Positions 2,505 to 21,905 of a stretch of 64,000 nucleotides of DNA are shown piece by piece. The DNA is from a virus. The translations under genes were made by a program, and so were the position numbers. Below the pieces are notes generated by a model, which was not told the origin of the DNA, ran no database searches, and was given only the letters and a program-made list of their open reading frames with translations. Each line of letters starts with the position of its first letter. Within the stretch, counting starts at the first letter, position 1. Where the stretch lies: positions 1 to 64,000 of the IMG/VR virus record IMGVR_UViG_3300037515_000591; one strand, given 5' to 3'.

Positions 2505-5500
2505 CTAGAGACCCACATAAGCGGGATAGGCGAGAACAACATCCGTGTCCGCACTGTGGGTTTTGACGACACCGTTCTGAGAGCGGGTCACCGTGTACGT
2601 CTGCGGGGTGGCCAGATCGAAATTGTCGAAGGACACGACCGGGTTCGTGTTCGTGTTCGCAGCATCAGCGAGCGACCAGCAGCCCAGACTCGCCGCACCA
2701 GTCAACGAGGAATCGGTGACCTCCGCCTGCCACGGCCCCGGCTCCAGCTCACTGGCCTCCCACACCTTCGCCTTCAACGCAGTGCCGAACCCCTGGAACC
2801 GCACCCGGACAAACGTCCCCGCGACATGCGTCAACCGCGTCGTAAACGACACGAGGTTCGTCTGCGCTGCGGCGACCCGCTTGAAGATGACCAGCGTCAC
2901 CGTTTGTGTGGTGGAGAACGCCAGCCTTGCCACATACAAGTTGTTGACATCCGTATAGCGGGCCATCGGCCCCGCATACAGCGCACCACCCGCAGCCAGA
3001 GCGTCGGTTGCGATATCCACGTAGATGTCGAAGTCGGCGGACGGCGCTGGCACGGATGACCGGTGTGCCGAGTTGACCGCCGTCAGAGTGTGGGTTCCCT
3101 CAGCGCCATCGACATCGAAGTTCCCCGCCGCAGTGCCGGTGTTCGTCCACGTCTGCCCGGAATCAGCCGTGCCCCAACTGTTCGTCTCGCTGCGGGTGAA
3201 CGAGTCATGAACCGCCGAGGCCGTGGCATGGGTGACCCGGGCCCCCCACACATGCCAGGTGTCCGCCGCGTCCGGTGTGTCACTGTGGAGCGCCAGCATC
3301 ACAGCCCTGGACGAGGTCGCCGGAGCCGTGAACGTCGCCTCCAGATACGTCCAGACACCAGCCGCGACCGCGAACCCCCCACCTGTTGAACTGGTCGATA
3401 TGTACGTCCCATCGGACTCATGCCAGTTCACGGCCGGTTGCAGCTCATCCCAACCGCCGGGACTGTACGCCCACAAAGACGCCGTGTAGGAAGCCCCGGG
3501 CTGGATGCTGCCGACCGCTGTCTGTGTGCAGCGGGCATCACCAGTGGCGGATGACCCGTTCGGGGTGATGAGCAGCGACGCGACAGCCCGTGGATGCGGA
3601 AGAACCTGCGCGGTGGAGCGTGCGATCGTCGTGTTGTTCCCGCTCCAGTCGGTGGTGTCCGTGTCGAAGAACGGATTCTCGTTCAGCAGGCCGCCCGGTG
3701 CGGTGACGGTCATGACTTCGCCGCCCACCCGCAGGTCGTACGGGGTATCGCCCACATCGTCGGTCCACGTCGGCCCCGACGTGGTGAGAACGTCGACGTC
3801 CGTCTCCGTCGTCGACAGTGCCTCCGCCAGCTCCGCCCCTTCCGTGTCGGCCCAGGAAAACTCCAGCTCCTGCTCCACCGTGTCGTCATCACCGGCCCAC
3901 GCCACATCGAACGGGCCGGCCGGGGTGCAGTTGTAGGTGATGGTCCACCGGTACTGGTCCATCACCTCGCTGTAGCCCTGCACGAGCAGGTCCAAAGTGT
4001 CCGGGGGCAGCCATACGGGCGGGTTGGTGATCTGGATGCGGGAGCCGACGTCGACGGCGGCCGCGGCCTCGATCGATGCGGGGGCTGCGGCCAGGTTCAC
4101 CGTCACCTGCGGGAAACGCGTCTCGTCCCAGGTCCCGACGTGCAGCCGCCACCCTGCATGGTTCAGCGGCTGCTCGTCATCGAGCAGGTTGAGGGTGTGT
4201 GCGGTGTCGTACAGGCCGATCCCGTCCGGCGGTGGCTGCGTGGACAAGGCGCCGGAGTCCAGCGTTACGCGGGCGATGGCTCCGTCTGTGCGCTGGACGG
4301 TGACATCGTTGGTGACGTTCTGATCGTCGTCGACCGGGTCGAGCGGGGTCACCAGCCCGTCGGCGCCGGTGTAGTCAAGGGTCAGCGCGGCCGGCTGGTT
4401 GTACAGGCTGGCCCGTGTGACGTAGCGGACCCCCAAGAGGTCACGCTGCTCGGCGAGGATCCCGCCGTCCACCTCGGCGGCGGTCTGCATCAGATCGGCG
4501 GCCGTGCCGCGGGCCTGCGGGCCTGCCTGTTCGTCTCCGGGGCCGGTGGAGTAGGAGTGGATTTCCTCCTCGTCCCCCAGCCGCGAAATGCGGGAGGCGG
4601 CTTCCTCGGCGTTCCAGCCCACAATCGGGGCCGCGGTGCCCGTGAAGCTCTGTGTGGAGTTGCCCATGGTCACCTGTCCGATGACCGTGTCATTCATGGC
4701 GCCGTCTTCACCGAAGCGGATCGCTGAAGCGATGCCCATCGTTGTTGAGCTGACAGTGCCGCTGAAGGTGAAGACAGTGGTCGAATCGTCGGGAACAGCC
4801 GTGGGAAGGGAATCGGCGACGTCTACGACAGTGACAAGGTAATCAACATCAGCGCCGTCCGTGACGAGCCGCAAAATGACTACTTTCTCCAGCCCGTTGA
4901 TGGAGTCCGAACCGAACCCTGAGGCATGGAGCTGCGTACCCTCGGCGTCAAAAGCACGCAAATCCAGGTTCCCGGACGTATTAACAAAGAGAGACCAGGT
5001 GCGAGCCGCCCCTGTCGTGGACAGGGAAACGAGCCGCTGCGTCGACACCACGCCCGCTGACGGGACCTTCGCGAAAAAGAACAAGTGGTTCGCCGGATTC
5101 GTGGCGTTCAAAGAGAACGACGGAATCGACACCTTCATCGACCCCGTACCCACCGTCGGCAGGGCGTCGGAACCGACCCAGTCCCCATACGCGGCAGGCG
5201 TCACCGTCCCCGTGATCACAAATGACGGATGCCCGTCGATCGCGGACCCCAGAACCGTGGCGTCCTCGCCGTCCTCCATCGGCCAGTACCCGGCGATGCG
5301 GGAGCTGCGCCCGGGATCAGTGAGCTCCCGGTACATCGGTGACTTCAGCGGAACCGCGCCCTGGCTCAGACGACGCAGAACGCCGGCGGCCTCCACCTCC
5401 GTCACAACATCGAGGCCGCCGGTTTCCCAGCGTGGAGTCCAGGAGGCGATCTCACCGAGAAAGCGGACCTTGCGATTGGTGATCTCCGCGTTCCCGGCCA

Positions 5501-6398
5501 CCGTCCAGGTGAGACCCGCAGCGTCATTGAAACTCGTCGCGCCGTCAGACTGCGCGGTGAAGTCGGGGTTGGCCACGGCGGTGCCATCAATGCCGGACAG
5601 GACTTGCACGGCGTGAACACGGCCGATGGCCTCGTCGAAACCGAAGTCGGGAATGCTCCCGATACGCAGATCGGCTGTGCCGCTGTGGATGGATGTGGTG
5701 CCCGATCCGGTGATCACGTCACCGAGCTGTATCCATGGGCCGTCGATGCTGTCGGCCGTGTAGAAAATGATGTCGTGTCCGGATGCGCCGTTGTCGACAT
5801 CGAGCGTGGCCCGTATGGCGAGGCGTCCACTCGATGTCAGGGGGAGATCGGTCGGCGTCGCGAACCTCAGCGCAGAGCCGTCCTCCGACCAGATCAGGTA
5901 GGGCCTGCTGAGCCGGATGTACAGGATCCATGAGACCTGCCCGGACGACCCCTTCCCGACGAGTTCCGTACGGTCGAAATCGACACCGCCCTCGGACGGG
6001 TAGTCGGGAAGAATCCAGTTGTTCAGCGTCGCGTCGAACCGGATGTCGATGTCACCAGTGATGTCCAGTGATGCATCGTCGGGAGTGGAGATGTAGTCGC
6101 CGGAATCCCCGGGGAGACTCAGTGCCACGCTCCCGGTGTTGACCGACACGCGGCAGGGTGTGTTGCGGCCTATCTGCCCGAAGTGCGTCCCTTCCGGGTT
6201 ACGGGGGGAGTAGGTGCCGTCCGTGTTGGACAGCACGAACGAGCAGCGGCCGGCGTCGACCCGCTGGCCCCAGTCGGAGCGGCCGCGGGTGATGCGGATC
6301 TGCTGCTCGCCACGGACGTCGGAGCTGACGTCCGTCCACGTCGAGCCGTCGAGGGAGAGGTCGACCTGGAGCGGGAGGATGGTCTCGGGGAACGCCAC
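2505..6398 (-). CDS. large tail-tip/receptor-binding protein (Dit-like N-terminus interrupted by LamG-like module, carbohydrate-binding-like C-terminal domains)
   Basis: 1297 aa directly after tape measure; N-terminal SLDGSTWTDVSSDV...RFLGEI pattern of siphovirus distal tail proteins; aa 91-306 LamG-like; NPFFDTDTTDWSGNN jelly-roll-like region. Confidence 0.8.
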   Translation of the reverse strand: MAFPETILPLQVDLSLDGSTWTDVSSDVRGEQQIRITRGRSDWGQRVDAGRCSFVLSNTDGTYSPRNPEGTHFGQIGRNTPCRVSVNTGSVALSLPGDSGDYISTPDDASLDITGDIDIRFDATLNNWILPDYPSEGGVDFDRTELVGKGSSGQVSWILYIRLSRPYLIWSEDGSALRFATPTDLPLTSSGRLAIRATLDVDNGASGHDIIFYTADSIDGPWIQLGDVITGSGTTSIHSGTADLRIGSIPDFGFDEAIGRVHAVQVLSGIDGTAVANPDFTAQSDGATSFNDAAGLTWTVAGNAEITNRKVRFLGEIASWTPRWETGGLDVVTEVEAAGVLRRLSQGAVPLKSPMYRELTDPGRSSRIAGYWPMEDGEDATVLGSAIDGHPSFVITGTVTPAAYGDWVGSDALPTVGTGSMKVSIPSFSLNATNPANHLFFFAKVPSAGVVSTQRLVSLSTTGAARTWSLFVNTSGNLDLRAFDAEGTQLHASGFGSDSINGLEKVVILRLVTDGADVDYLVTVVDVADSLPTAVPDDSTTVFTFSGTVSSTTMGIASAIRFGEDGAMNDTVIGQVTMGNSTQSFTGTAAPIVGWNAEEAASRISRLGDEEEIHSYSTGPGDEQAGPQARGTAADLMQTAAEVDGGILAEQRDLLGVRYVTRASLYNQPAALTLDYTGADGLVTPLDPVDDDQNVTNDVTVQRTDGAIARVTLDSGALSTQPPPDGIGLYDTAHTLNLLDDEQPLNHAGWRLHVGTWDETRFPQVTVNLAAAPASIEAAAAVDVGSRIQITNPPVWLPPDTLDLLVQGYSEVMDQYRWTITYNCTPAGPFDVAWAGDDDTVEQELEFSWADTEGAELAEALSTTETDVDVLTTSGPTWTDDVGDTPYDLRVGGEVMTVTAPGGLLNENPFFDTDTTDWSGNNTTIARSTAQVLPHPRAVASLLITPNGSSATGDARCTQTAVGSIQPGASYTASLWAYSPGGWDELQPAVNWHESDGTYISTSSTGGGFAVAAGVWTYLEATFTAPATSSRAVMLALHSDTPDAADTWHVWGARVTHATASAVHDSFTRSETNSWGTADSGQTWTNTGTAAGNFDVDGAEGTHTLTAVNSAHRSSVPAPSADFDIYVDIATDALAAGGALYAGPMARYTDVNNLYVARLAFSTTQTVTLVIFKRVAAAQTNLVSFTTRLTHVAGTFVRVRFQGFGTALKAKVWEASELEPGPWQAEVTDSSLTGAASLGCWSLADAANTNTNPVVSFDNFDLATPQTYTVTRSQNGVVKTHSADTDVVLAYPAYVGL

Positions 6399-6399
6399 G

Positions 6400-9300
6400 T
6401 CAGTTCCGTCCCATCGCCTGCTGTACGATGCCGCCGCGGTGGGCGATCTCTTCGCGCAGCGGGTCGAAGATCTGCCGGGCTACGATGCGCCCGTCCAGGG
6501 TGATCGTTTGGTGCACGACGATCGGCTGCCCCCCGCCGGCCGTGCCGCCTGGCCGCCCGCCGCCTGCTCCGTTGCGGGGCATGTTGAGCATCGACGCCCA
6601 CGCCGGCTGCACACTGCGGTTGCGTTGGATGCCTTGCGCGAAGCCTTCCGCGGTCTGCCCGCCGATCGTCTCCATCACCTGCGACGGAGACTTGATCTTC
6701 AATGCGTGCTTGATGCCCCGCTCCATCGCGAAAGCGATGCGCATCATGCCCTTCTCGATGATCTTCTGCCGTGAGGCCAGGCCCTTCACCAACCCCTCAG
6801 CCGCCTTGATGCCCGCCCCGTACATGGCGTCCGCAGCCACCGCCCCCGCGGTCTTCGCGTTCGCTTTGATCTGTTTCTGCAGGGTGTTGAGCTGCCGGAT
6901 TTCACCCTTGCCGCCGCCGAGGATCGCCGCCGCGGTTTCCATGCCGCCGCCGTCGATACCGGCTTCGGCGATCTGCTCGATCAGATCGCCGCGCAGTCCG
7001 CGGCCCTTCAACTGTTTGAGCATCCCGGAGAACTGGCCCGAGTTGGCTGCGCTGCCCTGCATCTGGGAGAGGATCGTGTTGATGGTGACGCGGGAGTCCT
7101 CGGCTCCGGCAGCGCGGGTGATGTTCGCGCCGCCGACGATGCCCGAAGCGACAGACGTCTTCAACTGCGAGGCTGCACCCTTCAGGTCGGACAGTTTGTC
7201 CCTGGCGCCGTCCAGGGCTTTGTTGACTTTGAGGAGTTTCTTTTCCTGCATGAGCAGGGCTTTGCCGGTGTTGTTGAGCCAGCGCAGCAGGCGTGATTCC
7301 TCGGCGCCGTGTGTCGTCTTCTTGATCACGCTGCGCCATTTGTTCAGTGCTTTGACGAGGTCCATGACGCTGTCGGGGTCGCCGATCTGGTTGCGGATCT
7401 CCGGGTTTTTGAACCCGGCCATGCGCCCGAAGTGGGAGACGGTCAGCTCACCGCGCGCAGCGCTGCGGGCCTCACGTTCCTTCTTCGTGACACCGCCCTT
7501 CGCGAACCCGGCCAGTTTCAGACGGCCCGAGTTCAACGCGTCGAGCAGCGGAACCCCGTACTTGCTGACGGCGCTGGCCTGCACGATGTACTCACGGTCC
7601 GACGCCCGGTACGCGCCGCCGTTCGGCGGCAGCATGAGAATCGAGTCCGAGGTGGGTGTGCCAGGGCCACGGATGAGGCCGCCGTCCGGGTAGGACTGCA
7701 CGTTGCCGCCGCCCGCATAGCCGGGTGCGAGACCGCCTGCTGCAAGGCCGGAGCGTGCGGTGCCCGCGCCGACGCCCGCGTAGTTGTACTGGCGGGTGTA
7801 GGTGGTCTTGACGTACGTGTTGGCGGTCTTGCCGTTGAGGCTGTCCAGGGCTTGCCGGACCGAGCCGATGGGTCCGAGGGCCTGGCCGTTCGCGGTGAAC
7901 ACCTGCGTCTTGCCATCGGGGAGTTGCTTCGTCTTCAGCCCCACGGCCTCCAGCGCCGCGATGGCTGCACCGTTCAACGTGTCGACCTTCACCGACTTGG
8001 CGCCCGGCGTCTTGTCGATCTCGGCCTGGACGTCCTTCAGCCCGGCGATGGCTTCCTCGCGCTCCAGCTTCACCAGCGTTTTGATATCGCCTGGCACCCC
8101 GAGCAGCTCGTTGACGTACTCGCGGGCCTTGGCCTTGTTCCCGTCGAAGGCATCCACCGCGAGGCGCATCATCGTCTCGCGAAGCTCGTCCGACTTCTTC
8201 GTCATCGACCCCAGCGACTCACCCGCCGCAAGCCCCGTCGCGATCAACTCGTCCTGAGACTTAGCCGCCGCCGACATCGCCTCACCGTTCCGGCGCCCCG
8301 CATCAGTGTCGAGGTCGAGGGTGGCGCCGTGCTCCTTGAAGCTCGCGGTCAGGTCGTCCAGCGACTGCTCGAACCCGATCTGCGCGTCGTACGCGGAGCG
8401 GTTCACGTCGTTCAACGCGAGGATGCTCGCGCGGAGTCCGTCCGCGGACTCCTTCTGCGCGCCGAGCTTCGCCGACGTATCCAACGCCGCCTGCCCGAAC
8501 ACGCTCATACTGTCCGCAGCGAGCTGCTGCTCCGCCTTCAACCCGGCAACCCGCGCCAGATACTCCGGGACCCGCTCCTCCACCTCCTTGAGCGAATGCC
8601 CCTGCTCCAAAGCGGCATCCTTCACCAGCCGGAAATCAGCCGCCGCCTGGCCCGCAAACCCAGAGTCGACCATCGACGCCAGCGACTGATCGAGCGCCCC
8701 GAACCGGTCGTCCAGCGACTTCAGCGAATCCTCGCCCTTGGTGAAGTCCTGCCACAGGCTGTTCGCCCCCCGCCGCAGGTCATCCAGCGGACCGATGCCG
8801 GAGTTCCCGAACGACTTGACGTACTCCTCCTGGTCCTGCGCCGACTGCCCGACCTTCCCGATGTCCTCGACCAGGCCGTCGAGGTCGCCGAACGCCTGCT
8901 TGAGTTCGCCCGTGAACTTGCCCGTCGACGCGAGGTTCTTCAGGCTCGTGGTCAGCCGGTCAACATCCGGCGGCGCACCCCGCGCCTGCTCGGCGAGCTT
9001 CGCAACCCCCAGCCCCACCGCCACGATCCCCGCAGCGATGAGACCGCCCTTCACCGACGTCGACAACGTTCCGATCGCAGCCCGCGCCCCGCGGACACCG
9101 CCACCCGCAGCAGCCGACGCAGCCGACAGCGCGAGCATCGCATCCCGCAACTTGCCCACCCCGGCGGCGGTCGCCGCCACCCCGGCGCCGGCCAGTGACA
9201 TGAGCTTCAGCCCTACCGCAGTCTGCATGGCGATCGTGACCAGCTCGGGCGGCAGAGCAGCGACCAGCTTCGCAACCGCATTCACCAGGGTGAGCATGCC

Positions 9301-10167
9301 CGGACCGGCGTCGGCGGCCGCCTCGGCGAGCGTCACCACGGCGTCCCCGGCGTTCGACAGGGTCTCGCGGACGGCGGGCCCGTTCTGTGCGGCGTAGTCC
9401 ATGAACGCTTTGACGGGGCCGTTGGCGTCACCGTCCGCGAGAGCCGTTGAGAAGCGGATGATGCCGGTGACCGCATCGCGCAGTGAGTCGTTCGCGAACG
9501 TCGACACCCGGTCTGCGAAACCGTCGAACCCCGGCGAAGCCACCGCACCGCCGGCCACCGACACCAGCCGGTCCAACTGCTCGGAAGCGCCGCGCGCCAT
9601 CGGCGTCAGCTTCGGCACCAGCTCGTTGAGGAGCGTGAACGACTTCTCCACCGGCGTCATCGTGAAGTCGGCTATGGAGTCCGACCAGTCCTGAAAGCCG
9701 TCCTTCAACGTCTGCATGCCGACCGCGGCCCGGGCCGTCGAGACGGGCATGCGGGACAGCGTCGTCGACAGCGTGTGCTGCGCCTCGGCCGCTTCCTTCG
9801 ACCCGCGCCCGGACTTGACGACCGCATCCGAGTACTTGGTCTGCGCCTCCGACGCCGCCGACAGAGACGACACCTGCCCGGCTATCGCCGCGCCGAACGC
9901 GGACAACGCCAACACAGCGCCGCCCGTCGCGCCGGCAGCCTTCCCCACAGCCACACCCAGCGCGGCAGTGACCGGAACTGCCGCCGCCGCCACCGGAATC
10001 AGCGACCCGACCGACTTGGACACCCGGTTCATCGCGGCGCTCATGATCGAGCTTTCGGACACGAACCGGCCGCGCATGTCCCGCAGGTGGCCGTTGACGT
10101 CACGGAACGCGCGGACGGCCTGGCCGTTGTTCGCACGGATAGTGATCGTTACGTCATCACCGGCCAC
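6400..10167 (-). CDS. tape measure protein
   Basis: 1255 aa, Ala/Gly-rich helical protein with hydrophobic segments, follows G/G-T chaperones. Confidence 0.9.
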   Translation of the reverse strand: MAGDDVTITIRANNGQAVRAFRDVNGHLRDMRGRFVSESSIMSAAMNRVSKSVGSLIPVAAAAVPVTAALGVAVGKAAGATGGAVLALSAFGAAIAGQVSSLSAASEAQTKYSDAVVKSGRGSKEAAEAQHTLSTTLSRMPVSTARAAVGMQTLKDGFQDWSDSIADFTMTPVEKSFTLLNELVPKLTPMARGASEQLDRLVSVAGGAVASPGFDGFADRVSTFANDSLRDAVTGIIRFSTALADGDANGPVKAFMDYAAQNGPAVRETLSNAGDAVVTLAEAAADAGPGMLTLVNAVAKLVAALPPELVTIAMQTAVGLKLMSLAGAGVAATAAGVGKLRDAMLALSAASAAAGGGVRGARAAIGTLSTSVKGGLIAAGIVAVGLGVAKLAEQARGAPPDVDRLTTSLKNLASTGKFTGELKQAFGDLDGLVEDIGKVGQSAQDQEEYVKSFGNSGIGPLDDLRRGANSLWQDFTKGEDSLKSLDDRFGALDQSLASMVDSGFAGQAAADFRLVKDAALEQGHSLKEVEERVPEYLARVAGLKAEQQLAADSMSVFGQAALDTSAKLGAQKESADGLRASILALNDVNRSAYDAQIGFEQSLDDLTASFKEHGATLDLDTDAGRRNGEAMSAAAKSQDELIATGLAAGESLGSMTKKSDELRETMMRLAVDAFDGNKAKAREYVNELLGVPGDIKTLVKLEREEAIAGLKDVQAEIDKTPGAKSVKVDTLNGAAIAALEAVGLKTKQLPDGKTQVFTANGQALGPIGSVRQALDSLNGKTANTYVKTTYTRQYNYAGVGAGTARSGLAAGGLAPGYAGGGNVQSYPDGGLIRGPGTPTSDSILMLPPNGGAYRASDREYIVQASAVSKYGVPLLDALNSGRLKLAGFAKGGVTKKEREARSAARGELTVSHFGRMAGFKNPEIRNQIGDPDSVMDLVKALNKWRSVIKKTTHGAEESRLLRWLNNTGKALLMQEKKLLKVNKALDGARDKLSDLKGAASQLKTSVASGIVGGANITRAAGAEDSRVTINTILSQMQGSAANSGQFSGMLKQLKGRGLRGDLIEQIAEAGIDGGGMETAAAILGGGKGEIRQLNTLQKQIKANAKTAGAVAADAMYGAGIKAAEGLVKGLASRQKIIEKGMMRIAFAMERGIKHALKIKSPSQVMETIGGQTAEGFAQGIQRNRSVQPAWASMLNMPRNGAGGGRPGGTAGGGQPIVVHQTITLDGRIVARQIFDPLREEIAHRGGIVQQAMGRN

Positions 10168-10720
10168 GTTTCACCTCCATCCGGGTCGGGGTCGGGTTCG
10201 TCGGGTGCGCCGAGGTTTTCGATGGCGAGGAGGCGCAGGAAGCGGGTGTCTTCCTGCATGAGCGTCGTGTAGGTGTAGCCGGGGAACTGACGGAGCAGGC
10301 CGAGGACCCATCGGGCGTGGGCTAGTTGGCCTGGCTCTCCGACAAGGGAGCCATCGGAATTGCGGGCGCCGGGGAGGGTTCGCCAGAGGTGGAGCTGTCG
10401 GGCAAAGGGTCGCTCTTGTGGACCCCCGTGAGGGCTTCGACGTAGGCGTTGTTGAGGCGCAGGATGAGGCGGTGGGGGCGTTCGCGGGATGCGCTGACGG
10501 GGATGGGCTGGCCGTCGGCGTCTTCGAGGTTCCAGGAGATGAGCGCCTTGTGGAACCGTTCCATGGTCTTGCCGGTGTCGTCGCCGTCGCCGCCGTCCCA
10601 GCCCATGGAGGACATGAATTCGCCGATGCTCATGCCTTGCAGGGTGGCTTCGAGGCCGTGGAGTTCGTCGTCCTCGGCGAAGCGGAGGGTGATGGTGTTG
10701 GGCTGCTCGCGGTATCCCAC
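10149..10720 (-). CDS. tail assembly chaperone, -1 frameshift (G-T) product
   Basis: the ORF ending at 10149 is in the -1 frame relative to G (codon phases 2 vs 1 mod 3); T part reads ...WVLGLLRQFPGYTYTTLMQEDTRFLRLLAIENLG; overlaps TMP start. Confidence 0.7.
10322..10720 (-). CDS. tail assembly chaperone (G)
   Basis: 132 aa acidic protein immediately upstream of tape measure; canonical synteny. Confidence 0.8.
   Translation of the reverse strand: MGYREQPNTITLRFAEDDELHGLEATLQGMSIGEFMSSMGWDGGDGDDTGKTMERFHKALISWNLEDADGQPIPVSASRERPHRLILRLNNAYVEALTGVHKSDPLPDSSTSGEPSPAPAIPMAPLSESQAN
10403..10409 (-). other. candidate -1 programmed frameshift slippery heptamer C_CCT_TTG
   Basis: minus-strand gaC CCT TTG is in the zero frame of G (D-P-L); shifting -1 gives PFARQLHLWR..., continuous with the T-frame ORF. 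Confidence 0.6.
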
Positions 10721-10753
10721 GGCCGCACCTCCAATCCTTATTGAAAACCGTTT

Positions 10754-11161
10754 TCAAGCCCAAGTCGGCGTTGCGCCATCCGAAAGCTGGAACGGGACAC
10801 TCCACGTGAACTCGCCGGACTGCGCCCTGGTCATCGCGTAGTCCGTGAGGATCACCGTGTTCGCCAGCGTCTGGCTTGAGATGACGATCGTCATCTCCCG
10901 CTCCACCGATGTGGAGGAGACGGTGCGGAACACCGAGTGCGCCTTGTTCGATTCGTCGTCGAAGCCGCCCGCCATGGTTCCGGAGAAGTCGGCGAGGAGC
11001 AGGTTGCGGGCCATCGCGGACTGTGAGATCGCGGTGATGTCCCACACGCCGCGCGGCATCGTCCAGTCCAGGTTGAATGTGCTGGATCGGATGTCTCGCG
11101 CCGTTGTGTCTGAATCGTCCACTTCGAGCGTCGTCCACCCGAGGCCGTTTTCAATAGCCAT
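10754..11161 (-). CDS. tail tube (major tail) protein candidate, 135 aa
   Basis: gene immediately upstream of G/G-T chaperones; N-terminus MAIENGLG resembles that of ORF 11643-13031. Confidence 0.55.
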   Translation of the reverse strand: MAIENGLGWTTLEVDDSDTTARDIRSSTFNLDWTMPRGVWDITAISQSAMARNLLLADFSGTMAGGFDDESNKAHSVFRTVSSTSVEREMTIVISSQTLANTVILTDYAMTRAQSGEFTWSVPFQLSDGATPTWA

Positions 11162-11197
11162 GTCCGCTTACCTCCCTATTTGTGACGCCGGTGGGCG

Positions 11198-11632
11198 TCA
11201 GCCCTTGTCCCGCTCATCGAGGAGCTGCCCCATGTGCTGCTGCACGTGCTCCACCCAGTCCGACGCCCGCTTATGCACCCGCAGCGGACCGACCTTCGCC
11301 CGGTAGTCCCCACCCCGCACCAGATACCGCTCCGGCATCGACTGGTGATCCTCGAAACAGCGCTGCCCCGACTCGAACCGGAACACCGTCAACCCGACCG
11401 CGGTGCGCTGCTCCCGGAAAGTGCGGCGCGAGCCGCGAATGAACGCCGCCTGCCCTTTCCCCAGCGGAGTGGACTCGTCGATGACCGACTCCCAGCCGCC
11501 GCGCCACCGCGGGCAGCCCACCCGCTCACACACCGACTTCACCCGCTTGTCCGGACGCGACTGCACACTCCACGTCCGGTACGACTCCACCGGCATCCGC
11601 GGATCACTCGGCCGAAACGGCTCACCCATCAC
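11198..11632 (-). CDS. hypothetical basic Cys-containing protein embedded among tail genes
   Basis: 144 aa, Arg/Lys-rich, CERVGCPRW motif; no structural-protein character. Confidence 0.5.
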   Translation of the reverse strand: MMGEPFRPSDPRMPVESYRTWSVQSRPDKRVKSVCERVGCPRWRGGWESVIDESTPLGKGQAAFIRGSRRTFREQRTAVGLTVFRFESGQRCFEDHQSMPERYLVRGGDYRAKVGPLRVHKRASDWVEHVQQHMGQLLDERDKG

Positions 11633-11642
11633 CCATCACCCC

Positions 11643-13031
11643 CTAGAACGTTGTCGCCGTGATGTTGACGTTCACAGCCACCGCGAACACCAGGCTTGTG
11701 AATCCAGCCGAGGTTGTCGTCACCGCCCGCACATACCGGCGGATCTCCGTCCCCGCCGCCACCGCAATCCGCTCCACCGTCGGAGCCGACCCGATCGCCG
11801 TGAACCCGCCACCCGTGATGTCCGCGAACGCGTCCTCACCACCGTTGTCGTGGGAGTGCTGGAGTTTCACCGTGGCGTCGGTGCCCGCGAAGCTGAACGC
11901 CTGCAAGTAGGCCTGCGCCCCGTGCACGGTGTGGGAGGAGATGAACGCGTCGCCCTGCACCGTCCACGTCAATGGCGTCGCATCCGACACATCGTCATCC
12001 GCGACAGAAGCGACCGGCGCAGCCACCGACGACCCAGCAATCCCGGACAGCACCTCACCCTGGAAGAACTTGCCCGCCAGCCGGTTCACGGTGCCCGCCG
12101 TCTGCGCACCGACCTCCAGCACCGCCGTCGAGGCGAAGATCGACGTGGTGGACCCGTTGCTCTGCGTCGCCCCCAACTGCGTCCACGTCACCCCGTCCTC
12201 CGACGTGTAGAACACGACGTCCGCATCCGACGACCCGTTGTCGACGTCGATCGTCGCCCGCACCCAGTGCGTCGTCCCATCCGTGAACCCGGTCGCAGCC
12301 GACGATGTTTCCGTCAGCTCGACCGTCCCGTCCTCCGACCACCGGAAAATCAGATTGCCGCCCGTCGTCACCGCCAGCGCATACGACCGCTGGTTGCTGG
12401 TCGCCGTATACTTCGCGATCAGCGTCGACTCCGCCGCCGGCGTCCAGTCATCCATCGCGACCCGCACCCGCAGGTCCAGGTCTCCCGTGATGTCCAGGCT
12501 GGCCGCGTCGGGGGTGGAGGCGTAGTCGCCGGACGTCCCGGACAGGAAAAGGAAGTCCTCCCCGTCGTAGCCGAACACGGCGGCGGTGCCGTTGGTGGCG
12601 CCGGTGTCGGTGCGCTGCTGTGCGGTGAGGAGGTCGCCCCATTCCAGGCCGAAGGCGTTGCCCTGCGCGTTGACGGCGATCGTGAGGGAGCCGTCCTGTG
12701 GCCGGGTGAAGTCGTAGTTGATCTGCTTGGCGACCAGGCAGGCCGCTGGGTCACCGATCGCGCTGCCGGTTGCCCACATCAGGTGCCGGTCCGCGGTGGG
12801 CAGTGCGCCGAGCTGGTCGTGGGCGCGGTCCGTGGCGTCGTTGAAGAATGCGCCCCAGGAGATCCGGCCGTCCCGCAGCAGGCCGATCCGCTTGTACGCG
12901 GACAGGTCGATGGTCGTGATGTCCTGGGTGCCCACCAGGCCGCCGCCGATGTCATCAGCGGAACCGGTGTCACCGGACAGGTCGTAGCCGCCGTAGTAGA
13001 AGGCCTGCCCGAGCCCGTTACTGATCGTCAT
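11643..13031 (-). CDS. major tail protein candidate carrying an internal LamG-like insertion
   Basis: 462 aa; aa 158-365 homologous to the LamG-like module of the tail-tip protein; flanks total about 255 aa. Confidence 0.6.
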   Translation of the reverse strand: MTISNGLGQAFYYGGYDLSGDTGSADDIGGGLVGTQDITTIDLSAYKRIGLLRDGRISWGAFFNDATDRAHDQLGALPTADRHLMWATGSAIGDPAACLVAKQINYDFTRPQDGSLTIAVNAQGNAFGLEWGDLLTAQQRTDTGATNGTAAVFGYDGEDFLFLSGTSGDYASTPDAASLDITGDLDLRVRVAMDDWTPAAESTLIAKYTATSNQRSYALAVTTGGNLIFRWSEDGTVELTETSSAATGFTDGTTHWVRATIDVDNGSSDADVVFYTSEDGVTWTQLGATQSNGSTTSIFASTAVLEVGAQTAGTVNRLAGKFFQGEVLSGIAGSSVAAPVASVADDDVSDATPLTWTVQGDAFISSHTVHGAQAYLQAFSFAGTDATVKLQHSHDNGGEDAFADITGGGFTAIGSAPTVERIAVAAGTEIRRYVRAVTTTSAGFTSLVFAVAVNVNITATTF

Positions 13032-13490
13032 TCACGCCACCTGTCCCCACGCGTTGGAGAAGACTGTCGGAATCGTGAGGGTCGCGATCCGGTAGGTCGT
13101 GGACCCGATGTCGAGATAGCCGAGGCGGGCGCGCATGCGGTCTCCGAATTCGCCGAGCAAATCGATGTTGCGGACGCTGCCGCCGAGCGTGAAATCGCCC
13201 GTGTACGTGCTCATCAAGTCGGTGACCGCGTTCGTCAACTGGACGTCGACCCCGTCCATCGGCTCGGTATCTGCGGGCAGGTAGATGCGGCCGTTGAAGA
13301 TGACGCGGACGCTCGTCGACGCGAGCCCGGACGCGGCCGGTAGCGGGTCGATGTCGCCGCCCCATACCGCATAGGTGAGTCCGCTGCCGGGTGAGGACAG
13401 CGGCTCGTGCTTGAGGACCTGCCCGAAAATACCGAGGGCCTGCCCGTGGGAGGTGAGCACGTCGCGGGGGGTGGCTATGTCGAGGGCCAT
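13032..13490 (-). CDS. tail terminator/head-tail joining candidate
   Basis: 152 aa, position between neck genes and major tail candidate. Confidence 0.45.
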
Positions 13491-14017
13491 GGGCGTCTCC
13501 TCACCGTTCCGGGGGCGAACTGTCCTGTCTCTGGGTCACGCCATGGCCCGGCCACGGGCTCTCGCTTGTTGTTCGCCTGCGTGGGCAGGTCAGCCCAGCG
13601 GCAGTTGTCGGGCGAGTACGGGCCGTCGTTGTTGATGCGGTCCAGCGTGAGACCGCTTGGCTGCTCGCCCATGTCGGCGAGGAAGTTCCGGAAGTCCCGC
13701 CACTGCTCGCACACCGCGATACCTCGGCCGCCGTAGAGGTCCCAGTCCGCGTTGTTGGAGTTGGTGCAGCGCTGGATCATGGCAGCCCACACGTAGTAGG
13801 TGGGCGTCCCTCCTCTGCCCTCGGGGCGGCGCCGCGCGTGGCCGTGCTTCGTGCGCTCACGTGCCATGCGCTCCTTGGCCTCGTCGGACATCACCCGCGG
13901 GGCCGACCGCATCGCTGCTGAGCGGTTTCGCTCAGCAACGTCGGGCCTCTTCTTGCCCTTCTTCGCCTCCGAGATCTTGCGGCGGCGCTCCAACTCCTTT
14001 GCGCTCACGGGCTTCAC
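13475..14017 (-). CDS. HNH endonuclease
   Basis: [11 protein letters not shown]...[11 protein letters not shown]...[28 protein letters not shown] motif; start set to GTG 14017 in GTGA overlap with upstream stop. Confidence 0.8.
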
Positions 14018-14409
14018 ATCCTCGCCGTGTAGCGGGACAGGAGGCGTCGAGCTATGCCCGGAGCCCTCTGCTGAATCAGCGCCCGCGCTCGGCTGAATGC
14101 CCTGTACCCGCGGAAGCGCGTCACCGGATAGTTCCTGCTCGAATTCCCTTCCAACCATGGGCCATACACTATGCCGTGGTCGGTGACCTCGTAGCCGCCG
14201 CGCGAGGAGCGCTCCACCCCGACGCGGGTTTCGTAGTAGGGGGTGCGGACCTTGATGGACCGGCCGAGGTGCTGCAGGACGAGGTTCTCCGCCTCGGTCG
14301 CCACCCGGTAGTCGATCTGGTCGGTGTAGTCGCGGAGCGCGCGCTGGGCACGCCCGTCGAACATCGGGCCACGGGAGTTGGCGTTCACACGGATGTCGAA
14401 ACCAGGCAT
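14014..14409 (-). CDS. HK97 gp10-like tail-completion/neck protein
   Basis: 131 aa; YGPWLEG and TRFRGY motifs typical of the gp10 family; synteny. Confidence 0.7.
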
Positions 14410-14411
14410 GT

Positions 14412-15467
14412 CTACACGCTCCTCGTTCGCGCCTTGCGGCCGTGGGAGACGTACACGCGGTCCCGCAAGTCCTTCAGCCCACGCCCGGACACCTCACGCT
14501 CGCCCTCACCGGAGCCGGCGGTCCGCGCATACCCGGACCGGCCCTGCAACAGGTCGACGAGCGCTTCGGCCACACAGAGTTGGCGGACGGGGCCGGGCGG
14601 GTCCCATCGCTGGACGGTCGTGGAGGTGGTGTGGGTGGCCGCGGTGGTGCCGAGCGCGCCGCGGGTGACGGCCAGGGTGCGGGGGGCGTAGATGTCCGCG
14701 CTGCTCGTGTGTGCGGCGAGGGTGGTGCCGTCCCAGGCGCGGGTGACGGTGAGGGTGTTGCCGCTGATTTCGTCGATGCGCATCTTCTCGGAGTCGATGA
14801 GGATGACTTCGTCGACGGCGTAGCCGGTGCCGTCCGTCACCGACACGGCGACGTCGTTGTTGGCGGCGGTGAGGTTGCCGCCGAGGTTCTGCCCGGTGTC
14901 GAGCTGGGATCGGCCAGTGACGATGACCCGCTCGGAGTCGATGCGCAGCAGGGAGCCGATACCGACCGCGGCCGAGGTGGCGGCGTCGACGTCGACGCCG
15001 GTCTCGCTGTCGTCGAGAGCCTCATCCGTAGAGCCGAGGGTGGTTTCGTCGTTGCGGTAGCCGAACAGGCCGGTGACGCTGATGTCGCGTTGGTGGGTGT
15101 CGCCGCCGCCGAATGCCGCGTTGGAGTCGAGGTCGATTTCGATGCGGTTGTACGGGGGCCCGTACTGGTTGGGCTCGAGGAAGTAGTCCGCCGCGACGAT
15201 GGTTGTGCCGCCGGATGTGAGGGTGGTGACGGAGATGACCTCGTTCGCATCCAGCCACAGCCGCCATGAGCGGGCGTACTGCATGTTGGGCCAGTCGAAG
15301 TGGCGGGTGTCCTGCTCGGGGTAGAACGTGCGGTGGCATAGGCCGTGGATGGTTTCGGTTGCGTCGGCGAGGGCGCGGTCGATGCGTGTGTTGGAGCGTG
15401 CGGTTTCCTTCACGTCGAGCTCGGCTTTGATCTCTTCGCGGGTGGCGTAGTACGGCGTGGTGGTCAT
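14412..15467 (-). CDS. head-tail adaptor (gp6-like N-terminus) with long C-terminal extension
   Basis: N-terminal [13 protein letters not shown]...[12 protein letters not shown] pattern of head-tail connectors; 351 aa. Confidence 0.55.
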
Positions 15468-16038: not shown

Positions 16039-16700
16039 CACGAAGGCTCCACGATCATCCAGGCCACCACCGACGTGTCCGTGCCATCGGCAGACGTGAT
16101 CGTGAAGTCTTGGGCCGCGTTTCGCGCCGTCACCCCGACCGCCTGCGGCGCCGACACCGTCCCCAGCGACTGCACCGTCAACTGAATCCGACTGGACGCC
16201 GTGACCTCCGTCGTGCTCACGGTCGCCGCACCAGACGACAGCGTCGCCACACCCGAGCGGGCGTTGTCGCCCTCCTTCAAGTTCAGACCGCCGCCAGCGA
16301 CATCGCAGTGCAGATCGCCCTCGGTCACGAACGTGTTCACCGTGTGCAGGCGGCTGCTGCCGTCGCGGGCGAGGTTGACGTCCACCGCACCCGAACCGGG
16401 GCCCCACTCCAGTTGCCCGTTCGCGTTGACGACGAACTGGGCGACGGCGTCCCCCGTCACCCGGGAGGTGAGGACGTCCGTACCCGAGGTGGCACCCTCC
16501 AGCGTCCACGCCCCAATCAGGCGCACCACGCCCGCCGAATCCCGGGACAGCACCGCATCAGGCACACCGCCGGCACCGTCAGTGAAAGCGATGCTGCCGT
16601 CATGGATGAGGAGGTACTTGCCTCGCAGCAGTGGTTCTTGCTGCTGGTTTTGTTCGGTGTCGCCGACGGTGCCGCCGCGGGCGCGGGTCGTTCTGGGCAT
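16038..16700 (-). CDS. hypothetical virion protein (beta-rich)
   Basis: start set to ATG 16700 (TGATG overlap); 220 aa Thr/Ser/Gly/Val-rich. Confidence 0.5.
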   Translation of the reverse strand: MPRTTRARGGTVGDTEQNQQQEPLLRGKYLLIHDGSIAFTDGAGGVPDAVLSRDSAGVVRLIGAWTLEGATSGTDVLTSRVTGDAVAQFVVNANGQLEWGPGSGAVDVNLARDGSSRLHTVNTFVTEGDLHCDVAGGGLNLKEGDNARSGVATLSSGAATVSTTEVTASSRIQLTVQSLGTVSAPQAVGVTARNAAQDFTITSADGTDTSVVAWMIVEPS

Positions 16701-17482
16701 CAGGCCACTCCCATCATGGGTGCGGTGTAGCCGTACAGGGTGGTGACCTCGGCGGCCGACAGTGCCTTGCCGGTGATGAAGGGGAGCGCGATGCGGCCGT
16801 GGAACTCGGCCACTGGTGTGGCGGTGACGCCGGAGCAGCCGATAGTGAGTGGGGCGGCGGTGTTCTCCATCGCGACGTAGGAGCCGTCCTCGGTGGTGGT
16901 GCCGTCGTTCGCGAGGGCGCCGTCGACGTACAGGTTGACCACCGGGGCGGTCTCGGTTCCGTCGTACGTAGCGATGACGTGGACCCACTGGCCAATGGTG
17001 AGGGCGCTGTCCGAGACGGCGATCTCCGTAGCGGACGCGGATGCGTCATGCAGTTCCAGAGACAGCAGGCCGGAGCCATCGATGAAGAACCGCCACTCCT
17101 CCAGGTTTCCCGCGGAGTCGTACTTCCCCATGATTACGTTGGTGGCGATGGCGTTCGGGCGGATCCATGCCCCCACCGAGAACGGGGTGTCCACCGTGCC
17201 GTTACCGAAGGAGTAATTCGTCGAGTCGACCCCGGCCAGGTGCTGATTCCCGACCGGGTTGAAGTGGTACGAGTGCAGCCCGGACGGCAGCGCGATGGGC
17301 GCGAACTCGCTCTGCAAGGTCCGGGCGGCCGCCTCGTCCGACGACGTCAGATCACCGACGCTGATACCGGAGATCAGCGAGCCTTCCGCCTCCCAGAATG
17401 GCCACAGGCTGGGCGTCGTGGTACCGAGGGTCGTCATGATGTCGTTCAGACGGCCCTCAGTCCCACGCCGGTACACAGTCAT
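16700..17482 (-). CDS. LamG (laminin_G_3-like) domain protein, possible capsid/neck decoration
   Basis: FSVGAWIRP...WRFFIDGSG...WVHVIATYDG...LYVDG...FHGRIALPFITGKALSAAEVTTLY; start ATG 17482 (TGATG overlap). Confidence 0.65.
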   Translation of the reverse strand: MTVYRRGTEGRLNDIMTTLGTTTPSLWPFWEAEGSLISGISVGDLTSSDEAAARTLQSEFAPIALPSGLHSYHFNPVGNQHLAGVDSTNYSFGNGTVDTPFSVGAWIRPNAIATNVIMGKYDSAGNLEEWRFFIDGSGLLSLELHDASASATEIAVSDSALTIGQWVHVIATYDGTETAPVVNLYVDGALANDGTTTEDGSYVAMENTAAPLTIGCSGVTATPVAEFHGRIALPFITGKALSAAEVTTLYGYTAPMMGVA

Positions 17483-17961
17483 CAGGCAGCCGCCACCAGC
17501 GTTGCACCCGGCGTCAGCGGCACATACGTCGCGTACCACTCCACGACACCGTCAACACTCGAAGCGCCAGCGACCTCGATCTCCCCAGTACTCACAACGA
17601 GCGGGCCAAGCGGAGCGCCGTTGACCGCGAAGTTCGTCTGGTTGTTCGCCGTGTCGTTGGTCTCGATCGCGATACCGATGACGTCACCGGCCAAGGTGTT
17701 GGTGGTGCCCAGGTCGGTGGCAGTGACAATGGTCGTCGTGTCACCCGTGGTGGGATCCACCGCGAGAGCGATCGTGCCGCCGTCCTCCGCGACGACCGTG
17801 GTCACCAGACCCCACAGCGCGGTGATGTACACCTCGCCACCGGCCACCGTGAACACCTGGTAAGTGGCGTCACCACCTGTCGTGAAGTCACTGGTCTTGC
17901 CCTGGACGTAGCGGCCCAGGAGCAGGCTCCGCAGCTCATGACCCTGAATGATCGTGCTCAT
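17482..17961 (-). CDS. hypothetical head-proximal structural protein
   Basis: 159-aa track ORF, beta-rich composition, coupled to neighbours. Confidence 0.5.
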   Translation of the reverse strand: MSTIIQGHELRSLLLGRYVQGKTSDFTTGGDATYQVFTVAGGEVYITALWGLVTTVVAEDGGTIALAVDPTTGDTTTIVTATDLGTTNTLAGDVIGIAIETNDTANNQTNFAVNGAPLGPLVVSTGEIEVAGASSVDGVVEWYATYVPLTPGATLVAAA

Positions 17962-18465: not shown

Positions 18466-19965
18466 TCAGGCTCGGGCGGCCAACTGCACGAACGGCGAAA
18501 GCGGGTCGCTGTTGTTCTGTGGCGTGCACGGGGACTGGAGCCACGGCTGACCGTCGACGCGCTGGATGATGCGGTAGGCGGTCTGGTCGTTCTGGAACTT
18601 GAAGTGCGGCGACGACATCGCCGACATGACCTGCCGGTCGCCGATCAGGTAGAACCCGAAGTCCACAAACGAGATGTCGCCCTTGTCGCCGAGGACACCC
18701 GGTGCCTTCTCGGTGACGACGACGGGGCGGCCGAGGATCGTCATCGGCGGGCCCTGAACGCCGTTGTTCAGCCAGATCGCCGAGCCGCCCGTACCGACGG
18801 ACAGACTCATGGTGGCGAGCTCCGGGAACACGTCCGGGCTCACGACCCACACCGCGCGGTCCAGGCTGCCGGGGAGCATGCGGGCGTACATCTTCACCAG
18901 GTTTTCCCACACCACGGTGTCGGCTGCCTGCCCGGACTCCTTGGCGACCTCGACGATCGCCGTGTTGCCCGCCTCCAGCGCGCCCTGGGGTTCGCCGACA
19001 CCACTGCCCTTGAGGAACGCGATGTCCTCGTAGAAGTTGAGGGCCTCGGGGAAGATCTGGTCGAGGAACGCCTGGAACGAGATGGCGGAGTCGGAGATCA
19101 GTTCGTTGGGGACCTCGGTGTACGCGGTGAGCTTCTTCGCGTCGAGGACGATCCGGGAGAACGCGGCCTGCGACGCGGTGAGCGCTGCGCCCTCTTCGGT
19201 CCAGTAGCCGACGACTCCGCCGTACACCGAGCTGACGTTGCTGGTGGAATCAACTGCCGGGAACGGCACCCGGAGCGTCTCCATCGGGATGACGCGGGCC
19301 CGCTGCCGGACGACGGACTGCTCCAGCGCCACCGCGAGGAGTTCGCTACGGAGGACCTCGGGGATGAGGAACCCGCCCTCCGATGGCACCGTGCTGGAGA
19401 ACGCGTTGCGGACGCGGGTCAGCTTCGCCTGCATGTCCGCAGTCCGGTTCGCGTTGTGCCAGATCGTCTGGAAGTACTCCGCCGAGTTCTTGAACTCGCG
19501 GTCCAGGACCGCACCCATCGCCCGCGGGTTGTGAATGTGGTTCCGCGCACTGCCCGTCTGCACGACGGCCTTCGGGGTCAGGTCGATGCGGTCCACACCG
19601 TCGGGCTGGTTGTCGCGCAGCCAGTTCGCGAGGATCTGCTCCGTCTGCTCCTTGACCTGCGTCGCAATGCTGAGGTCGCGGGCGTGGGTGTTGCGGGCGT
19701 AGTTGGTGATGAACTCGCCGAAGGCTTCCGGCTGCGCGAAGACGCGCTGCATCTTCGCCGAGTCGGTCAGCATCTCCTCCAGCGCGGCCTGGTTGGTGGG
19801 GATGGTGAGACGGTCGGGGTCCACCCCTCCGGCCGGGGCCGGCGGTTCGGCGATCCGGTTGTACGCCTTGCCGATCTGGCGCGGGTCGAACCCGGCGCGG
19901 AGGATCATGCGGTGGCGCATGCCGGACACGGTGTCGGCGCGCCCCCGGGCGATTGTGGTGTTCAC
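18466..19965 (-). CDS. major capsid protein, HK97 fold with N-terminal delta domain
   Basis: 499 aa; GGFLIPEV, PFPAVD, YWTEEGA, KKLTAYTEVPNELI, SPHFKFQNDQTAYR motifs; GTG 19965 in GTGA overlap after GGGAGG. Confidence 0.9.
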   Translation of the reverse strand: MNTTIARGRADTVSGMRHRMILRAGFDPRQIGKAYNRIAEPPAPAGGVDPDRLTIPTNQAALEEMLTDSAKMQRVFAQPEAFGEFITNYARNTHARDLSIATQVKEQTEQILANWLRDNQPDGVDRIDLTPKAVVQTGSARNHIHNPRAMGAVLDREFKNSAEYFQTIWHNANRTADMQAKLTRVRNAFSSTVPSEGGFLIPEVLRSELLAVALEQSVVRQRARVIPMETLRVPFPAVDSTSNVSSVYGGVVGYWTEEGAALTASQAAFSRIVLDAKKLTAYTEVPNELISDSAISFQAFLDQIFPEALNFYEDIAFLKGSGVGEPQGALEAGNTAIVEVAKESGQAADTVVWENLVKMYARMLPGSLDRAVWVVSPDVFPELATMSLSVGTGGSAIWLNNGVQGPPMTILGRPVVVTEKAPGVLGDKGDISFVDFGFYLIGDRQVMSAMSSPHFKFQNDQTAYRIIQRVDGQPWLQSPCTPQNNSDPLSPFVQLAARA

Positions 19966-21698
19966 AGTTCTGCCTCCCAAAGGGCACGTCGTACTGCTGA
20001 TTGGTCGATCGTTTGGACCGGCTCGGGCGCGGCCGGCTGGGGCGCGGCGGGCTGGGGTGGGGCGGGTGCGTCGTTGGCGACACCGGTCATGACGGCGCGC
20101 AGGTAGTCGGCGACGACTTGCCCGGCGGGCGGCGGCGGTTCGGGCACGACGGCCGCAGCCGGGGTGGGCACGGCCGGGGTGGGGCGTGCGGTCTGCGGGG
20201 CGGCCGGAGCATCGTTGGCGACCCCGGCGAACAGGGACCGGAAGTAGCCGACCGCCACCGTCTGCGGATCCGCCTCAGGCACGACGTCTACAGGCGGCGG
20301 CACATACGGGACCGGGTCCTGCCGCGGGGCGGGTACGGCCGGTGCGTCACCCGCCACACCCGCCATGAGAGAGCGGAAGTAGCCGGCGGCCACGGTCTGC
20401 TCGTCGGGTTCGGGCACGACGTCCGTGGGCGGCGGCACGTACGGGGCGGCCTGGCGTACGGGCGTGGGCGCGGCGGGTGCATCACCTGCGACACCGGCCA
20501 TCAGCGACCGCAGGTGCTCGGGCTGGTAGCCGGGCATCGGGTCGAGCGCGGCGGTTGCGGCGGCACGGAACACGGACGGGTCGAACGCGGCTGCCGTGGG
20601 CGCGTCGCGGGCGCGGTCCTCGCTGCTGTCGCCGTCCGCAAGGTGGGCGCGCAGGTGAGCTTCCACCGCGGCGCGCTGCGCCTCGGGTACGTCGGACTGG
20701 GGGAGGCGTGCGAGCCCGTTGCGGCAGGCGGCCAAGTTGGCGGCGCCCGGGCTACCGTCGCCGTCGACCTCGTGGTGGGGGAACTTGCACGCGCTCTTGG
20801 GGAGTTCGCCGCTCTCGACCTGTTCGGGGTCGTACCAGCCGTACGCCTTCTTCGCGGTGGCGACGGTCATGGGGGCGGGGAGGCGGCGCTCATTCGGGCC
20901 CGCATCCCATGGGGAGTCGACGGTCGCGGTGTGGTGCGTCGGCGACGCAGTGTCGAGCGGTGGTGCGGGAGCGGTCTCGCGGCTGGTGTGCGCGTAGTTG
21001 TACACCGACAGGTCCCACGCGGCGGCGACCGCCCGGTCGTCGGGCATCTCTTCCATCTGCCGCTCAGGCTTCGCAACCTCGTCCGCGAGCCCGGCCTCAA
21101 CCGCCTCATCGGCGAAGAACCAGGTTTCGGCAGCCATGAGGCGGAGCCACTGCTTGACCGTGCCGCCTGCACGCTCGGCGTACACCCCGGCCAGGTTTTC
21201 GCTCTGCCGGTCGAGAAATTCGGCGTACTCGCGGAGTTCAGCCGCTTCGCCGCTGGCGACGCCCTGCGCCATGTGCAGCATCATCTGGCTGTGCGGGGCC
21301 ATGATGATCCGGTCTCCGGCCATGGCGATGACGGAGGCGATCGATGCGGCGAGGCTGTCGACCTGGACGATGACCTTGGCGCGGTGGGAGCGGAGTGCGT
21401 TATAGCAGGCCAGGCCGTCATAGACCTCTCCGCCAGGGCTGTTGACGTACAGCCTGATCTCCGGCGCATCGATGGCCTTGAGTTCCTCCACAAAGGAGGA
21501 GGCTGAAATTCCCCACGAGCCAATGTCGCCGTAGATGTACATCGAGGCGACGGGTGAGCCGCCTTCGTCGACGGTGTTGGTGATGCGGTACCAGCCCTCG
21601 ACGCCGTCGGGTCCGGGCAGTGCGGGGCGTGCGGCTCGGCTGCGTTCGGCAATCACTTCGGGGGCGGCGGTATTCCACGATCGCCGCGTGTGGCTCAT
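19962..21698 (-). CDS. ClpP-family (S14) prohead protease fused to scaffold-like repeat region
   Basis: YIYGDIGSWG...VNSPGGEVYDG...SLAASIASVIAMAGD...MMLHMAQG; start ATG 21698 after GGGGAGGG. Confidence 0.85.
   Translation of the reverse strand: MSHTRRSWNTAAPEVIAERSRAARPALPGPDGVEGWYRITNTVDEGGSPVASMYIYGDIGSWGISASSFVEELKAIDAPEIRLYVNSPGGEVYDGLACYNALRSHRAKVIVQVDSLAASIASVIAMAGDRIIMAPHSQMMLHMAQGVASGEAAELREYAEFLDRQSENLAGVYAERAGGTVKQWLRLMAAETWFFADEAVEAGLADEVAKPERQMEEMPDDRAVAAAWDLSVYNYAHTSRETAPAPPLDTASPTHHTATVDSPWDAGPNERRLPAPMTVATAKKAYGWYDPEQVESGELPKSACKFPHHEVDGDGSPGAANLAACRNGLARLPQSDVPEAQRAAVEAHLRAHLADGDSSEDRARDAPTAAAFDPSVFRAAATAALDPMPGYQPEHLRSLMAGVAGDAPAAPTPVRQAAPYVPPPTDVVPEPDEQTVAAGYFRSLMAGVAGDAPAVPAPRQDPVPYVPPPVDVVPEADPQTVAVGYFRSLFAGVANDAPAAPQTARPTPAVPTPAAAVVPEPPPPAGQVVADYLRAVMTGVANDAPAPPQPAAPQPAAPEPVQTIDQSAVRRALWEAEL
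19965..20516 (-). repeat. four tandem ~45-aa coding repeats at the C-terminus of the protease-scaffold
   Basis: units start HLRSLMAGVAGDAP / YFRSLMAGVAGDAP / YFRSLFAGVANDAP / YLRAVMTGVANDAP, each followed by a Pro-rich spacer. Confidence 0.8.
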
Positions 21699-21905
21699 TG
21701 GGTTTCGCCCTCCCCGGTGCGGGTTTTCGCATTGTCCAGGCAGGGTCATTGTGCACTATGCGTTGCGGCTTGTATGGCCTCTGACCTGCGATAACGCGGC
21801 TTTACCGTTTCCATATCGCGGGTGTCGCATTTCTTTAACAGTGGGTTTTCTTAATTCCCGTCAGCCGCGTGCATGTTTACGTGTATTCGCGTACCATTCC
21901 GGTGC

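Follow-up and report, generated by a model that had tools for sequence, protein, structure and literature searches.

Carbohydrate modules are carried by lactococcal 936-group (Skunavirus) phages on the distal tail protein (Dit; evolved Dit), on the major tail protein (MTP; TpeX extension) and on the neck passage structure (Hayes et al. 2019, PMC6669499). Two of these modules, one of the tail and one of the neck, were tested and bound their own hosts; the decorations of Dit and MTP tend to co-occur (20/30), and the idea of shared structural 'bricks' was already put forward (PMC6669499). A comparable arrangement is described here for a Streptomyces prophage, contained in a window of 64,000 nucleotides (positions 1 to 64,000 of the IMG/VR virus record IMGVR_UViG_3300037515_000591). 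Two tail proteins encoded in this window, the tail-tip protein P0001 with 1297 amino acids (aa) and the 462-aa tail protein P0002, carry inserted modules of about 210 residues, which are homologous to each other by sequence comparison and have a predicted concanavalin A (ConA)/LamG-like fold.

As in the 936 phages, accessory beta-sandwich modules are predicted for a protein of the tail tube side and for a putative distal tail protein of the same virion, here from the genes alone. By analogy, the arrangement is regarded as the actinophage counterpart of the known lactococcal decoration with carbohydrate modules. In contrast to the 936 phages, the host is a high-GC actinomycete, the module on the tube side is an internal linker insertion instead of a C-terminal extension added by frameshift, and the protein on the tip side is a 1297-aa fusion protein instead of a stand-alone Dit. 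The homology between the two modules is demonstrable, and their binding is putative.

A second comparison is given by gpV of phage lambda and gp13 of mycobacteriophage Douge. P0002 would resemble both in the combination of a ring-forming N-terminal tube domain with an outward-facing extra domain. Douge gp13 is a tail tube protein (TTP) with an immunoglobulin (Ig)-like domain, and glycan binding was proposed by the authors for Ig-like domains (PMC13033339). The insert-less homologue of P0002 has 248 aa and is nearly of the size of lambda gpV (246 aa). However, gpV has an Ig-like domain at its C-terminus, whereas a module of ConA/LamG fold and a jelly-roll-like C-terminal domain are predicted for P0002. 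P0001 does not differ from actinophage tail proteins of phrog_5313: in gp38 of Streptomyces phage phiSASD1 and in the 'carbohydrate binding domain-containing protein' of Streptomyces phage Dagobah, the position of the module is identical. P0002 shares only the module segment with these proteins.

The arrangement carries the idea of shared carbohydrate-binding 'bricks' from dairy phages to Streptomyces prophages. It is a real but ordinary finding, belongs to a known class of decorated tail proteins and leaves the understanding of phage tails unchanged.

Homology of the two modules

A sequence-only reading of the window had proposed that the same cassette is present in both tail proteins. The coordinates and frames given for it are exact: 5481-6128 (minus strand) encodes residues 91-306 of P0001 and 11937-12560 (minus strand) residues 158-365 of P0002. 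With BLASTP, residues 93-312 of P0001 were aligned to residues 161-370 of P0002 with 38% identity and 53% positives (E 4e-29). The Smith-Waterman score of the module pair was 305, compared to 40.7 +/- 7.1 in 500 shuffles (z = 37). When the profiles of the two module families were compared with hhalign, a probability of 100% and an E of 3.9e-53 were obtained over 200 columns. Thus, the alignment of both segments reflects homology and not shared composition. The motifs listed in the sequence-only reading were found in both modules, with the restriction that G.TTSI is inexact in P0001. In both host proteins, the similarity between the modules begins and stops within a few residues of the limits of the insertions.

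Insertion into the host proteins

For P0002 the insertion could be delimited with the 248-aa homologue of Dagobah, in which the module is absent. Residues 6-145 of P0002 align with residues 6-144 of this homologue (E 5e-25) and residues 370-456 with residues 159-241 (E 4e-14); P0002 has 224 residues where the Dagobah protein has 14. On the minus strand, P0002 consists of the N-terminal domain aligning with the Dagobah protein (residues 1-145, 12597-13031), the insert (residues 146-369, 11925-12596), composed of a 15-residue linker and the ConA/LamG-like module at residues 161-369, and the C-terminal beta-sandwich (residues 370-462, 11646-11924).

For P0001 the open reading frame (ORF) 21 of Thermobifida phage P1312 was used, which is the first gene past the tape measure gene, like the gene of P0001. 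Residues 4-89 of P0001 align with residues 199-283 of ORF21 (E 3e-19) and residues 312-483 with residues 289-462 (E 3e-13). The ConA/LamG-like insert of P0001 comprises 222 residues (residues 90-311, 5466-6131, minus strand) where P1312 has 5. The limits of both insertions are unusually clean, owing to the natural homologues without insert that are available for each host. In P0001 as well as in P0002 the module is an insertion, and the limits of similarity coincide with those of the indels.

According to the sequence-only reading, the module interrupts an otherwise contiguous domain in both proteins. This fits P0001, in which, according to the alignment, the insert stands in place of a turn of five residues flanked by conserved segments, as expected for an intra-domain insertion. 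For P0002 the claim did not hold. An AlphaFold2 model of P0002 was built on 31 family members (mean predicted local distance difference test (pLDDT) score 80, most of the module 85-96), and a second model was calculated for the insert-less P0002 family (mean pLDDT 74). In both models, the N-terminal domain ends near residue 142, and the C-terminal part is a seven-strand beta-sandwich, which starts at residue 370 in P0002 and at residue 161 in the short form. Thus, in the predicted structures the module of P0002 occupies the linker between two domains and does not lie inside of one domain.

The insert-less tip homologue of P1312 (L002, 6407-8380) has an additional N-terminal region of about 198 residues, which is unrelated. 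Hence, this scaffold takes different add-ons at different positions.

Fold and family of the module

The model of P0002 was compared with known structures using Foldseek. The matches of the module in the PDB were the CBM40 of a sialidase, the pentraxin domains of C-reactive protein and PTX3, laminin-G, and the LG domains of agrin, neurexin and pikachurin (probability 1.0, E 5e-5 to 7e-4, target-normalised template modelling (TM) score 0.55-0.67). In BFVD, phage proteins labelled as concanavalin A-like lectin or LamG-like jelly roll were found. On the basis of the model, the fold of the module is a concanavalin A/LamG-like beta-sandwich of about 210 residues, and the label LamG-like, used in the sequence-only reading, is appropriate at the level of fold. 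Conserved Asp and Trp positions were recorded in the module family. By sequence, nothing meaningful was found in the PDB with P0001, P0002 or the profile of the tip family as query, and no match was obtained in NCBIfam for P0001, P0002 or the flanks of the tip insert.

The pool of related modules comprises 6,238 protein clusters at 50% identity, 1,197 of them with an E below 1e-30. Many of the proteins in this pool (500-3,000 residues) hold 2-9 tandem copies of the module. Ten large representatives were scanned; they match phage families (phrog_5313) via the module part only, or are members of the tip family with extra copies. P0002 is also connected to phrog_5313 through its module only (E 1.5e-24, profile positions 239-435). 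The module is a very large building-block family of phage tail proteins, which is unnamed by Pfam and could be curated.

Identity of the host proteins

The N-terminal domain of P0002 was investigated by means of its insert-less homologues, which gave sub-threshold matches to the lambda-like tail tube family Phage_TTP_11 of Pfam (19-27 bits, E 4e-6 to 1e-3) and agreed with one another in register. For the C-terminal domain of P0002, a match was obtained with the C-terminal end of phrog_9522, annotated as 'major tail protein' (E 1.4e-5). No signal was obtained with hhalign between the insert-less family and lambda gpV. When PDB and BFVD were searched with the full-length model of P0002 using Foldseek, the matches were dominated by the module; these searches were discarded as evidence on the host domains, about which they are uninformative. 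With the insert-less model, the top matches were weak (E 2.7e-4 to 5e-3, TM about 0.26-0.30), namely the baseplate chain 8zdo_m of Douge (290 residues), a baseplate chain of phage NF5 and a baseplate chain of p2 (298 residues). The latter is presumably the Dit of phage p2, and Dit proteins share the tube fold. For the distal tail protein (DTP) of Douge 291 residues are reported (PMC13033339), a length which fits the chain 8zdo_m.

The 135-aa protein P0514 (10754-11161, minus strand) is a further tube-domain protein of this region. It is similar to residues 1-123 of P0002 (26% identity, E 2e-4), consists of the tube domain only and is conserved in Dagobah with 51% identity. P0002, a 144-aa basic protein and P0514 are encoded in the same order in Dagobah. 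The gene of a major tube protein usually adjoins the tail chaperone genes. Here, it is the gene of P0514 that adjoins the chaperone candidate; the gene of P0002 is not immediately upstream of the chaperone and tape measure genes, with the genes of the 144-aa basic protein and P0514 intervening before the chaperone gene.

P0002 can be assigned with confidence to the ring-forming proteins of tube fold. That it is the major tube subunit is the somewhat more probable assignment, with uncertainty arising from the 135-aa paralogue closer to the chaperone genes; P0002 could form a single ring instead. The sequence-only reading placed modules along the tail tube. This placement depends on P0002 being the major tube subunit and shares the uncertainty introduced by P0514.

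P0001 matches phrog_5313 over its residues 2-940 (E 5.5e-223) and contains a CBM_4_9 domain at residues 904-1040. Two separate genes of P1312, encoding a tail protein and a phosphodiesterase, are fused into one in P0001. This agrees with the description of phiSASD1 gp38 in the P1312 paper. The most variable parts of P0001 lie further toward the C-terminus. The designation of its N-terminus as Dit-like could not be confirmed and is based on the gene order after the tape measure gene: no match was found for this N-terminus in Pfam, NCBIfam and PDB-profile searches, the isolated flanks and the other segments of P0001 had no match in Pfam, and an hhalign comparison of the tube-fold family with the tip family gave no signal of a kinship between Dit and tube proteins.

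Residues 360-600 of P0001 start with a YWPMEDG-type motif and match the profile of the shared module weakly (probability 57% and E 1e-4 in hhalign). A second LamG-like domain of strong divergence may lie here, but is not claimed.

Origin of the two insertions

At least 120 protein clusters, with identities down to 55%, have the 460-aa architecture of P0002 with insert, which was detected in none of the isolated phage records. More than 100 clusters share the architecture of the tip protein, and 32 records of isolated Streptomyces phages, including Dagobah, have it as well. Due to this wider spread, the tip insert is probably older than the tube insert. In a tree of the host domains, calculated after removal of the module columns, a single branch with support 100 splits the insert-bearing from the insert-less P0002 proteins. 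Judged from this tree, the tube insertion apparently took place once and characterises one clade of prophages.

Module trees were calculated with FastTree (509 sequences) and IQ-TREE (80 sequences). The tube modules form one clade and the tip modules another, with support of 97-100 across three trees. In the tree of the careful maximum likelihood (ML) search, well-supported branches lie between the tube and the tip clade, and the two clades were joined in none of the 200 bootstrap trees. In the 509-sequence tree, many modules of other proteins are closer to each copy (path length 1.46-1.8) than the two copies are to each other (2.78). Because of this separation and the lack of bootstrap trees uniting the clades, separate recruitment from a module pool is favoured.

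The two copies are ancient paralogues. According to this explanation, each was most likely recruited by recombination from a pool of tail modules, without recent copying from gene to gene. In P0001 the module lies in a short turn of the N-terminal domain, as an old insertion which many isolated Streptomyces phages have in common. In P0002 it lies in the linker that connects the ring-forming N-terminal domain with a decoration domain at the C-terminus. Taken as a whole, including a putative role as outward adhesins, we consider this explanation probable.

Several points weigh against it. Both host proteins are identified only in part. The matches to Phage_TTP_11 stay under the gathering score of 28.4, with 13.4 bits for the N-terminal domain of P0002 itself, and the weak Foldseek matches of the insert-less model point to Dit as much as to tube proteins. 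For the module, no Pfam or NCBIfam model was above threshold, so that the LamG-like label does not extend to a curated LamG sequence model at gathering score. The best match was Laminin_G_1 on the tube module with an E of 0.034 (14.8 bits, cut-off 24); the tip module was without match. Regarding the trees, a bias in topology could arise from the sampling, since the other modules had been picked for their resemblance to the tube module. Furthermore, the approximately unbiased (AU) test leaves a tree with tube and tip modules as sisters formally unrejected (p 0.062, likelihood difference 26.4), and a quick search gave a slightly better likelihood to the tree constrained to sister status. The AU test of this quick search was discarded, since its free tree was poorly optimised, and is superseded by the careful search.

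The tree results bear on an ancient intragenomic duplication, in which the tip module was copied into the linker of P0002 in the ancestor of the clade and both copies diverged to about 40% identity. Such a duplication agrees with the likelihood comparisons just mentioned, with long near-identical motifs common to both copies, and with the greater age and wider distribution of the tip module, which is present in Dagobah and in many isolated Streptomyces phages without tube insert. However, the well-supported branches between the clades, the absence of a bootstrap tree uniting them and the shorter paths to modules of other proteins are opposed to it. We regard the duplication as unlikely and give preference to separate recruitment.

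Putative function of the modules

Both modules would project outward from the tail as accessory carbohydrate-binding adhesins. Weak, multivalent binding to glycopolymers of the cell wall would aid adsorption, as in the lactococcal phages. This role is suggested by the fold, by insertion sites of display type, by the tandem arrays of the family in tail proteins and by the precedent of the lactococcal 936 phages. Glycan binding is thereby deduced from a predicted fold, and, by analogy to the 936 phages, the modules are putative outward-facing carbohydrate-binding domains for wall contact of low affinity and high valency. The module of the P0002 family is as conserved as its scaffold (mean pairwise identity 68% for the module, 61-64% for the host domains). 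It is therefore not a fast-evolving determinant of specificity.

The degree of conservation is atypical for fast-evolving receptor-binding parts and would also agree with a purely structural role, in which the modules stabilise the tail by contacts between rings or between tube and tip, or by docking of other tail proteins, without binding of glycans. ConA-like folds mediate protein-protein contacts too, for example in neurexin and laminin. Nevertheless, the position of the inserts in an inter-domain linker and in a short turn suggests outward display, members of the family occur as tandem arrays in fibre-like proteins, and the modules of the lactococcal precedent bind host cells (PMC6669499). 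A structural role is hence quite improbable compared to carbohydrate binding.

If P0002 is the major tube subunit, a few hundred copies of the module would be present along the shaft, in addition to a ring at the tip. The broader proposal, that the modules are an unnamed family of insertable tail domains with which this clade, given a tube-forming P0002, carries a lectin array over the length of the tail, is put forward tentatively. Such an array would let the phage bind and scan the walls of Streptomyces hyphae before its commitment at the tip. The receptors of Streptomyces phages are poorly known, and isolated modules could be used to probe glycopolymers of the cell wall.

Age of the two copies

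In a codon alignment, the two modules have a nucleotide identity of 54%. At third positions the identity is 45%, compared to 33% expected from composition, and synonymous sites are near saturation. These low values indicate that the duplication is old and not datable at the DNA level. Recent movement of the cassette within the genome, as proposed in the sequence-only reading, in which a mobile unit is copied between two genes of the same genome, is supported only by the presence of both copies in one genome and the agreement between the limits of similarity and insertion and can be dismissed in view of this divergence, the fixation of both architectures in more than 100 diverged relatives and the grouping of each copy with its own orthologues instead of its genome-mate.

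Genomic context

The named homologues of P0001 and P0002 belong nearly all to Streptomyces genomes; the remaining ones are metagenome proteins. The source of the window is a Streptomyces prophage. Each of the two architectures is kept in more than 100 protein clusters of Streptomyces prophages. The structural module of this high-GC, siphophage-type prophage occupies the left 22 kb of the window, and all its genes described here lie on the minus strand. In gene order, it starts with a ClpP-type protease (19962-21749), followed by the major capsid protein (18466-19980), a 279-aa protein (16700-17539), an adaptor-like protein (14412-15467), an ORF for an HNH/homing-type endonuclease (13475-14158), a 152-aa protein and P0002 (11643-13031). 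The gene of the cysteine-containing 144-aa basic protein (11198-11632) is located between those of P0002 and P0514. A 132-aa chaperone candidate, encoded between P0514 and the tape measure gene, the 1255-aa tape measure protein (6400-10167) and P0001 (2505-6398) follow. After P0001, two small genes and then an amidase gene are present.

The skew of G/C at third codon positions varies strongly from gene to gene among the structural genes (-0.49 to +0.44). Inside the gene of P0002 it is -0.38 for the N-terminal domain, +0.21 for the module and +0.15 for the C-terminal domain. The difference in skew between the two modules was considered as evidence on their origin and dropped, as it lies within this wide scatter.

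The endonuclease ORF among the head-tail joining genes (phrog_374, E 3e-39) overlaps, as called, the neighbouring ORFs on both sides. Dagobah has no counterpart at this place, and the neighbouring 131-aa gene has its Dagobah homologue at another location.

The 279-aa protein contains a classical Laminin_G_3 domain (Pfam E 6e-21); its relationship to the shared module is only a distant one (BLASTP E 0.024). Its gene is situated near the capsid gene, between capsid and adaptor genes, and the protein could decorate the head or neck. In this case, ConA-like domains would be present at three places of the virion.

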